This document shows, piece by piece, positions 54,348-56,563 of a stretch of 64,000 bases of DNA. The stretch covers positions 79,422,001 to 79,486,000 of the forward strand of contig NC_134471.1 of NCBI RefSeq assembly GCF_964194025.1, read 5' to 3'. A program made the position numbers and the translations under genes. Numbering within the stretch: the stretch's first letter is position 1; every line of letters begins with the position of its first letter. A model generated the notes under the pieces. It saw only the letters and a list, made by a program, of their open reading frames with translations, had not been told where the DNA came from and did no database searches. This DNA is from Convolutriloba macropyga. Its lineage: Eukaryota.

Positions 54348-56563
54348 ATGCTTCACCAGTTTAGTTAGTTCTTTATTTTGTATGCTTTTTCCTATTTTCT
54401 TTATATCTTTTCCTCCTATTTACTTTTTTATTTTACTTACTCTGAGTCTCATCACGAAGATGTGTCCAACACATTGAAAGTTTCTCATTATGACTGTTCT
54501 CACCCAAATGAAAATCGAACGTATGCCTTAAATCAAGTAGCTCCCTGCAAACTCAGCCCTGAAGACCTTTGTGTAACAGAGGTTTCCGTTACATTGTATC
54601 AAAGATCCTATCGTGTTTCACTCAACGGGACAAAGTGTCGCGTAAAAGTTTTCCCTCTAAGTTTTCATTGCTGAATGAATTCACACTCCTCGATAATTCA
54701 TAACCAAAATAGTATTACGTACAACCTGATCATATCTCCGGAACAATGTGCACTCGCTTCAAAAAAACGTGAAATTGTTGTAAAGGAATTTGGTCACACT
54801 TTTACACTTCCAATTAAGTTTAATGAAAAAATTCAGTCAAATTATAACCACGGTCAAACTACAGAAAAAAATAGTGTAACTGATTCTGATGGCAGAGGCC
54901 ATATTAAACACTACACATTTGAAACTTATATGCAATAAGTGGAATTAAAAGTAAATTCGGACAACAAAAAGGTACAGAATCCATATGGTTTTGTCCTACC
55001 GTGCAGTCTGACCGACGGTGGATGTGAATCCACATCCTTAGATCCAGTTGCTTACACGTGGACCCAACCTAGTAATTGCCTACTTTCTGTTCTTTTCCAA
55101 AATAAAGCTAAAATGGTTAAATATCTTTTTGATCCCACGCCCGCTCAATACTACATTGTGAGCGACGGGAATACTGAACCAACTGAGCGAGAAAAAATGC
55201 ATGGTCGTGATGAAAACAGTGACAAACCTGACATGAAATTTCGTATATAAGACAATAAACAGGAGTTGTGTGGCAAGAAAGGAGCACTGTACCGAACAAA
55301 TTTTGATTCCTTGTTTAGTTCTTATTCAGGTGGTTTTGATATGAGCACGGGCAAACCAAATGTTATTCGTCAAGGAAAAAATAACTAAAACATGACAGTT
55401 GATTCAAATAATCCGGTTTCGATAAACGGGATGTCTAAGGTCTCTTCTAATCTCGGTAAAATTGAGAAAGATAAACTCCACTGGAATTTTGTAGGAACAG
55501 ATAAGATTGACTATGAGTAACGTCTAGGCGCCAAACTCTCCTATCTTATGTACTTCAATGCAAAACAGTTGAGACATTCTGAAACGACTCTTTTACGAAA
55601 CCAATGTGAATTAGAATGAACCCAGATACTAACTATTATGATTCTTGCTGTGCAGAATAGTAGATTAGCAGGTTATATGCTTACCGGGAACCGTTCGATG
55701 TTTTAGACACCGATGGAAGTATCGGATGGCTATATCACTGTCCAAAAAAATTGTCCCCACTTAAAGTTCTTGATCGTTGTTTTGATAAAATACCAATTTT
55801 TTATGAAGATCGTACTATGTTTGTTGATCCTATTACCCGTCAAACTTTTCCTATTGCGTATGAAATAAAGTGTTCTGGAGGCTATCAAAATGCCTTCCAA
55901 CTTGATGTTGATGATGAAAAATCTTTGTACCAGTTAATGCCCGCTCCGATGCTCTTTTTCCTCATATAACACAATTTCCTACTTATGACACACGACGAGC
56001 CGGAATGTACACACCTAAACAAATTAAACAAATTTGGTCAAACATAATTCAAAATACCGTTTCAAACGATATCCTGAAAAAATCACCCGAACGGTAATGA
56101 CTAAAGAAAACATAAACATTGATGATCAAAAGGGATTTGACTTCGCTAGCTCAGTGAAATTTAATCGCGAGTTGTCTCTTGATTCACTTCTCTCTCCTAC
56201 CGTTTTTGTGATTCAATTTATTGTCACCTTGGAAAAATAGCCTATTGGGTTGAACGATGTGGTGCCTACTTTGCTTGTTTCCTTCTTGTAAAGTTTCTTA
56301 TTGATATCTTAGTAACAATTCTTCGGGCTCTCGAAATTCATCGTTTGTCAAACATATAACCTTTGTGTTCGTTCTATTTTTTTACTTCTGTTTTTTCACC
56401 TAATGAAAACGAAGAGCAAAAAGAGAGAGCAGCTGAACACGAAGTTGAGCTCAAAAGCGTAAAATCACCTAAATATAATTATTGTACACAAGCAGAAAAC
56501 GCTCAACCCTTGCCAGAAGAACCTTCACGAAATAAACACTACCCCGTTATAGCCCCTGTATAA
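54348..56563 (+). pseudogene. env: chuvirus-like (class III, gB-related) glycoprotein, fragmented
   Basis: Hydrophobic signal region, then SHYDCS, LNQVAPC, KCRVK..FHC*MNSHSS, ISPEQC, LPCSLTDGGC..AYTW...C, RLAGYMLTGN..GWLYHCP..CFDKIPIFY...FVDPITR..IKC; C-terminal TM (GAYFACFLLVKFLIDILV) and a short tail. Confidence 0.75.

Follow-up and report, generated by a model that had tools for sequence, protein, structure and literature searches.

Ty3/gypsy elements are usually seen as three-gene parasites, and multi-gene accessory regions mark the vertebrate complex retroviruses; lentiviruses carry accessory genes. Gypsy elements with a gB-type env have been described by Chary and Hayashi, who used the chuvirus-like glycoproteins of Anakin as baits, recovered 114 arthropod gypsy elements with a homologous gene, reported gB-type env genes in gypsy elements of cnidarians, ctenophores, tunicates, and other phyla, and argued that the association of gB-type env with gypsy is ancient (PMC13524379; here and below, statements on published systems refer to the accessible parts of the texts). 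These HSV/gB-type errantiviruses resemble the element described here in their LTR-gag-pol-env organization, gypsy pol, gB-like env with conserved cysteines, and many near-identical copies, but elements of the type found in our window add approximately 11 genes 3' of env and measure 17 to 20 kb; the published screen was confined to the gag/pol/env span (PMC13524379). Dezordi et al. described the capture of a chuvirus glycoprotein by mosquito Pao elements (PMC7642597, PMC10084718), and the later of the two papers, in its accessible text, reported no clear gypsy capture at that time (PMC10084718). The Troyka paper, as far as its accessible part goes, repeats only the classical view (PMC12440569). 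The mosquito element Anakin (PMC7642597) is another LTR element with a class III glycoprotein of Monjiviricetes type, but it has a BEL/Pao backbone and a glycoprotein near those of chuviruses, whereas the backbone here is gypsy and the identity to viral glycoproteins is 13% to 16%. Planarian Burro (PMC6431247) is likewise a giant gypsy element with env homology and with extra domains linked to ubiquitination or apoptosis, including a RING Zn-finger motif; however, most of its extras are fused into a polyprotein of approximately 4,900 amino acids and its F-like env lies between gag and pol, whereas here a class III env is followed on its 3' side by extras in separate small ORFs. Foamy-like fish ERVs have accessory ORFs and reach 17 kb (PMC6431247). 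With these ERVs and the complex retroviruses our elements share paralogous accessory ORFs 3' of env and, in sibling copies, ORFs before gag, but they differ in their Metaviridae-type pol and class III env, and their accessory genes showed no sequence similarity to any known family. LTR elements of bdelloid rotifers (PMC5408684) show that invertebrate gypsy-like elements can carry additional non-env ORFs, but these have one extra ORF3 (GDSL, DEDDy, coiled coil, or TM), and the word RING does not occur in the accessible text.

The sequence-only reading of this locus had presented a gypsy element with a chuvirus-like env as new. That combination is published (PMC13524379), and gypsy with a class III env is already known in kind; what the locus adds to it is a host record. 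Acoel terms were not found in the accessible text and supplements of Chary and Hayashi (PMC13524379), and env is not mentioned in the accessible part of a paper on an acoel genome (PMC9911081). What may be new is an accessory block between env and the 3' LTR. We found no prior description of such a block in the open literature (titles and abstract starts); the words accessory and RING do not occur in the accessible text of PMC13524379, and one mention of accessory ORFs is indexed in a longer version of that paper.

The window, by which we mean the whole stretch of DNA analyzed, comprises 64,000 nucleotides of Convolutriloba macropyga (contig NC_134471.1, positions 79,422,001 to 79,486,000 of the forward strand). 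It contains a Ty3/gypsy LTR element of 16,873 bp on the + strand (46255-63127), in which the following parts were recognized outside the accessory block:

46255..47101, + strand: 5' LTR, starting with TG and with a non-canonical end; its ends were set by comparison with a sibling
47104..47113, + strand: primer-binding-site-like sequence directly after the LTR, with 1 mismatch to the version of the siblings
47861..49142, + strand: gag, broken; PF03732 (Retrotrans_gag) E 1e-8, PF19259 (Ty3_capsid) E 2e-4
49143..54216, + strand: pol of Ty3/gypsy type (PR-RT-RNaseH-IN), broken; from Pfam domains
54348..56563, + strand: env pseudogene, predicted class III gB-like fusion glycoprotein; from PF24664 and the sibling model
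62209..62220, + strand: polypurine-tract-like sequence, purine-rich, abutting the 3' LTR and common to the siblings
62221..63127, + strand: 3' LTR, pairing with the 5' LTR; from sibling comparison

The two LTRs are 92.2% identical over 861 columns (K2P 0.082), and the window element is therefore an old insertion. LTRs of this group end in TG...AA or TG...TA instead of TG...CA, and the primer-binding-site-like motif after the 5' LTR is common to three siblings. The target-site duplication is weak in the window copy, in which the flanking 4-mers agree at 3 of 4 positions, and a 4-bp duplication is present in one young sibling. A degenerate CCHC-like knuckle can be read by eye in gag, and pol matches the Pfam families RVT_1, RT_RNaseH_2, Integrase_H2C2, rve, Integrase_p58_C, and SH3_Tf2-1. 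When two sibling pols were compared with solved proteins, Ty3 Gag-Pol was the nearest (E 1.3e-56 and 1.1e-43). Peptidase_A17, DUF1758, DUF1759, and DUF5641 are specific to Pao elements, and Pao-type domains were absent at E ≤ 0.05-0.1 from the window pieces and from the open or near-open pol proteins of the siblings and of the metagenome locus L092. Judged by its domains and by the PDB ranking, the backbone is of Ty3/gypsy (Metaviridae) type and not BEL/Pao, as the sequence-only reading had it.

The env gene is located directly downstream of the Ty3/gypsy integrase and within the LTR pair. In the window it is interrupted by at least seven stops (in-frame stops at 54366, 54672, 54936, 55248, 55386, 55518, 55617, and 56357) and by four frame changes (near 55700, 55960, 56080, and 56205, the second accompanied by a short deletion). 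Translation from 54348 hits a stop six codons on, and similarity to the open sibling begins at approximately 54378. This env copy is dead. All sequence motifs previously read from it were found on the + strand (YDC, C.V...HC-stop-MNSHSS, LYHCP, and CF..IP...FVDP.TR, with the end at 56563). Of the proposed signal peptide and C-terminal TM, which we judged by eye and by hydropathy, both hydrophobic stretches are visible, but only the TM passes the hydropathy value of 1.6 (windows 638-647 and 678) and the N-terminal stretch fails it. Open siblings encode env as a separate ORF after pol, with an N-terminal hydrophobic segment, an ectodomain, and a TM, an arrangement that is broken in the window copy. 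Two separate env pieces of the window matched PF24664 (Monjiviricetes_fusion) with E values of 1.9e-5 and 5.1e-6, each under the curated cut-off, an X read-through of the first frame matched it with E 1.3e-15, and the natural open env of a sibling (locus L021) with E 1.7e-42. The well-aligned segments of this open env are 72% to 98% identical to the window env, and 14 of its 18 cysteines are conserved across 30 aligned homologues with at most one miss.

The predicted structure of the natural open sibling env matches herpesvirus gB and chu-, xinmo-, and qin-like glycoproteins and not F proteins, in a comparison that rests on a monomer model of the open sibling rather than of the window copy (mean pLDDT 59, pTM 0.34) and on matches with TM-scores of 0.13 to 0.27 and high rmsd. 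Best matches were of class III in three structure searches, and the F-type class I fold, with its furin site, was not supported, the open sibling env having no R-x-K/R-R motif. A PDB sequence search with the env profile gave 0 matches at E ≤ 10. As far as the model and the profile matches indicate, the gene that occupies the env position of this gypsy element encodes a gB-like class III fusogen of Monjiviricetes type. The former description of env as chuvirus-like holds for the Monjiviricetes type, on the basis of PF24664 and the fold, but not for chuvirus as the donor: the identity to any viral glycoprotein is 13% to 16%, and chu-like, xinmo-like, qin-related, and rhabdo-like proteins interleave in BFVD, so no donor can be named and chuvirus cannot be singled out.

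Between env and the 3' LTR lie 5.7 kb that the sequence-only reading had overlooked and that contain approximately 11 tightly packed ORFs: four S1 paralogues (56709-57926), a hydrophobic ORF, three S2 genes (58583-59343), two R genes, and one C gene.

56709..57016, + strand: S1a, in two frames here, both pieces matching the S1 profile (E 9e-18 and 4e-15)
56970..57317, + strand: S1b, 115 aa, 86% identical to a sibling ORF; S1 profile
57307..57618, + strand: S1c, 103 aa, paralogue of S1b and S1d (E down to 3e-14), with an 11-nt overlap with the previous stop
57594..57926, + strand: S1d, 110 aa, paralogue of S1c; S1 profile
57988..58443, + strand: hydrophobic ORF, 151 codons stop to stop, without Pfam match; the weakest member of the block
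58583..58819, + strand: S2a, 78 aa, from the family alignment; predicted four strands and a helix, AF2 pLDDT 86
58816..59064, + strand: S2b, stop to stop; S2 profile E 1e-20
59086..59343, + strand: S2c, 85 aa; S2 profile E 3.5e-22
59376..59741, + strand: R1, double RING-like zinc finger, 5' end disrupted in the window copy
60309..60668, + strand: R2, 119 aa, open, two C2-H2-C4 RING-like units; zf-C3HC4_3 E 1.4e-4
60977..62098, + strand: C, conserved core and C-terminal coiled coil, one internal stop in the window copy

S1a is a single ORF of 103 aa in the C5 sibling, and the siblings have hydrophobic ORFs at a similar place whose likeness is in position only. In two young families, most adjacent S ORFs overlap or start at most 20 nt from the previous stop, with a one-base stop-start overlap occurring twice; this close spacing suggests expression by reinitiation or from several sub-genomic RNAs. 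Treating S1 and S2 as one family was set aside (hhalign probability 0.7 and BLAST E 0.009 only). S2 belongs to no Pfam family (one DUF at E 0.012), has no sequence match in the PDB, and gave weak matches only and no clear fold when its predicted structure was searched, an SH3/KOW-like small barrel being among the folds compared. R sequences are better characterized: 12 invariant and 4 near-invariant Cys/His positions in 12 sequences form two C2-H2-C4 sets, each unit having eight conserved zinc ligands in RING-like spacing with His, not Cys, as the third. This C2H2C4 arrangement resembles the ligand order of the MDM2 RING, and the RINGs of TRIM32 and MDM2 are the best matches of the R family profile (E 1.5e-4 to 6.5e-4). 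The R proteins differ from both in having two tandem units in 120 to 135 aa with a different spacing, and from MDM2 in lacking a p53-binding or any other MDM2 domain. The Pfam family zf-C3HC4_3 was matched by 8 of the 12 R sequences (best E 8e-5), no Pfam RING match reached the curated cut-off, and the single R2 protein of the window retrieved no RING from the PDB, only noise. Look-alikes of R2 in the Atlas include giant-virus RING-like proteins (scores 0.88-0.90), a lead only. Each of the four families of this genome has a C homologue, L092 has two, and C is older than the rest of the block. It matched no known family (Atlas matches below 0.9 with low recognition), its PDB and Pfam searches gave coiled-coil noise only, and at least 4 database matches were found among the best 7,994 candidates scored.

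To place the window copy in its group, seven sibling copies in four families were compared. One of them aligns colinearly with the window element, at approximately 91% identity. Sibling LTR identities of 95%, 98.6%, 99.7% (a 19.9-kb element), and 100% indicate that the group amplified recently, the window copy being dead, and young copies of up to 19.9 kb carry the accessory block. The block is present in three divergent families of this genome, its homologues keeping their order in two other families at approximately 20% to 50% amino-acid identity. Around individual genes the same association recurs: S2 and C accompany R at 13 of 14 R-centred loci (the best 14 of 58 matches), env, S1, and R accompany S2 at 10 of 10 loci (the best 10 of 150 matches), and S1 accompanies env at 12 of 12 (the best 12 of 150 matches). 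S2 matches were free of stops in 141 of 150 scored cases. With a short env piece as query, all 150 scored candidates matched (the best 150 of 1,920), and approximately 60 env matches among the matches listed, by hand count, lie in open frames of at least 750 codons. Sibling families also have one to three conserved leader ORFs between the 5' LTR and gag, which were not recognized in the window copy:

L028, 356-673, 840-1169, and 1173-1565: leader ORFs of a sibling family
L030, 160-477, 658-972, and 976-1368: leader ORFs of a sibling family
L024, 1010-1312: leader ORF of a sibling family

One sibling leader ORF is weakly S1-like (E 0.005-0.008). Two tandem arrays with element sequence were seen elsewhere in the assembly, a decayed array of an R2/C segment with a unit of approximately 1.6 kb (G000:C5:58849756-58866737) and an array of an env segment with a unit of approximately 1.8 kb (G000:C6:71959270-71963066).

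Pairwise dN/dS values were 0.11, 0.20, and 0.42 for S, 0.20, 0.40, and 0.23 for R (the window R value including the disrupted 5' end), and 0.29 and 0.30 for C (one C comparison being saturated), all with p < 0.006; for comparison, env gave 0.13 to 0.32 and pol 0.05 to 0.45 (p < 0.006). In the codon-position control, position 3 led in 7 of 7 gene sets, significantly in 2 of 7. The genes of the accessory block are under purifying selection for protein function, like pol and env. Selection was not significant for the leader ORFs (p 0.39) and the short hydrophobic ORF (p 0.50) of the siblings. Not all relatives carry the whole block. The fourth family (L086/L087 and L088/L089) has an open env, one C-family ORF of 587 aa, 100% identical LTRs, and, in one copy, a single gag-pol frame of 2,050 aa, and its S and R genes are absent; S and R are therefore dispensable for transposition and amplification. 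At L025:1640-4402 the accessory block is shortened, at 2.7 kb compared with 4.0 kb in the sibling copy, and has no RING-like ORFs. Metagenome contig L092:1-13166 apparently holds a near-complete related element with gag, pol, and env (47% identical), followed by three downstream ORFs, two of them C-like, with no S or R and with short repeats at the contig ends.

Taken as a whole, it is highly probable that the feature at 54348-56563 is the dead env of an old gB-type Ty3/gypsy insertion, and that this insertion belongs to a sub-lineage with a selected polycistronic 3' accessory block. Working copies would encode a trimeric class III fusogen, anchored in the membrane, by which particles would spread from cell to cell, probably from soma to germline, as in Drosophila errantiviruses. 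The 3' block of approximately 9 to 12 genes (S1/S2 orphan arrays, two to three double RING-like proteins, and the coiled-coil C) would most likely act like the accessory genes of complex retroviruses, and its ORF spacing points to expression probably via sub-genomic RNAs or stop-start reinitiation. By analogy, the RING proteins might recruit the ubiquitin machinery against host restriction factors, with the small paralogues as diversified binders, a proposal that we make tentatively. Equally speculative is the broader idea that a Ty3/gypsy lineage independently evolved the plan of a complex retrovirus, with a class III env, 9 to 12 accessory genes, up to three pre-gag ORFs, its own tandem RING E3 ligases, arrays of small defence-countering proteins, and a recent spread to hundreds of copies. 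With approximately 11 genes under selection in three families, expanded paralogues, and RING-like proteins encoded by the element, such a plan would be seen to arise in Metaviridae. The young C-only family, closely related and in the same genome, is a natural comparison for what S and R add, and the binding partners of S and R would point to defence pathways of a poorly studied invertebrate host.

Two other accounts concern env. That this gypsy lineage captured a chuvirus glycoprotein recently and independently, as the sequence-only reading had assumed, would fit the Pfam Monjiviricetes_fusion match, the several chu-like viruses among the top BFVD rows, and the capture published for mosquito Pao elements (PMC7642597, accessible part). 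However, non-chuvirus glycoproteins rank equally at 13% to 16% identity, and the env and pol trees of seven elements (L092 and six elements of this genome; 42%-95% identity in env, 69%-99% in pol) have an identical unrooted topology with supports of 92 to 100, being congruent down to approximately 45% env identity. The trees thus show no separate capture of env and fit a long co-inheritance of the two genes; a quick 42-row env tree was left out of the conclusions. A further point against it is that many gypsy elements carry a gB-type env, for which an ancient origin has been argued (PMC13524379, accessible part), and an IMG/VR scan, a weak test for RNA viruses, gave 5 pattern matches, 0 confirmed, and hence no free viral relative. 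We consider this capture very improbable; env would rather be an old, vertically kept part of the lineage. Database env homologues P0261 (100%) and P0004 (98%) are elements of this genome itself, and because many of the database homologues are such, they give no evidence of a wider range; for env clades P0174 and P0114, no near-identical sequence was found in this genome. Distinctly unlikely, too, is that the element moves within cells only and that env is kept for a role other than entry, for instance cell-cell fusion or receptor interference. Particles are only putative here, herpesvirus gB normally requires partner glycoproteins (PMC13524379, accessible part), and no furin-type R-x-K/R-R motif was found in the open sibling env, all of which such a role would accommodate; but furin sites are often missing in gB-type env (PMC13524379, accessible part), and env is open, in its canonical position, and under selection (0.13-0.32) in many young copies.

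It is, moreover, unlikely that the 3' block was taken up from the host or a DNA virus as cargo of little use to the element, its RING-like proteins being plain zinc- or nucleic-acid-binding modules and not E3 ligases. The absence of S and R from the young fourth family and from L092, the loss of R in the L025 copy, the weak RING scores, and the giant-virus RING-like proteins among the R2 look-alikes are in line with such cargo. However, purifying selection on the block is as strong as on env and pol, gene order is kept and paralogues are expanded across families, the best-scoring matches that were examined sit in element context, and no S2 relative was found outside the elements of this genome, which are the best match of 51 of 51 S2 hits (59%-99%).

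Other features of the window and of the assembly were also recorded. Contigs of four runs from one study cover all 30 bins and carry no information on expression or splicing. Inside the element, the depth of these contigs rises to approximately 10 times the element level at 59808-60374, with a loose end at 59936, and to approximately 3 times at ~47200-47900, with a loose end at 47338; both peaks are probably small high-copy repeats. Approximately 700 bp upstream of the 5' LTR, at 45072-45542, there is a host 7TM GPCR-like ORF (Srsx E 2.5e-6) that runs into a MITE-like element (45459-45642) with inverted ends of approximately 30 nt and similar copies at 41957 and 42846-43018. Downstream of the element, a stretch at ~63630-63710 on the - strand looks tRNA-like by eye; ARAGORN called no tRNA at 44000-64000, and the stretch may therefore be a SINE. 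Elsewhere, 740-9712 consists of three tandem units of approximately 3.37 kb that are 96% to 99% identical, each with a 145-nt N stretch, and 22773-24467 is a near-perfect palindrome with 843-nt arms, 98% complementary, separated by 9 nt. Two long arms in inverted orientation, at 10218-20262 and 32683-38671, are 90% to 98% complementary; their outer ends carry 41-bp and 25/26-bp tandem arrays, and together they may make up a single large foldback or TIR element. A cox1 frame of the assembly is clean under NCBI table 5, with AGA/AGG at Ser sites and ATA at Met sites; provided that its contig belongs to the host, this code speaks for a bilaterian invertebrate and against cnidarians, tunicates, echinoderms, and rhabditophoran flatworms. 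Two cox1-like fragments on a large contig (L100 and L101, G000:C13), one of them with stops, are probably nuclear copies of mitochondrial DNA.
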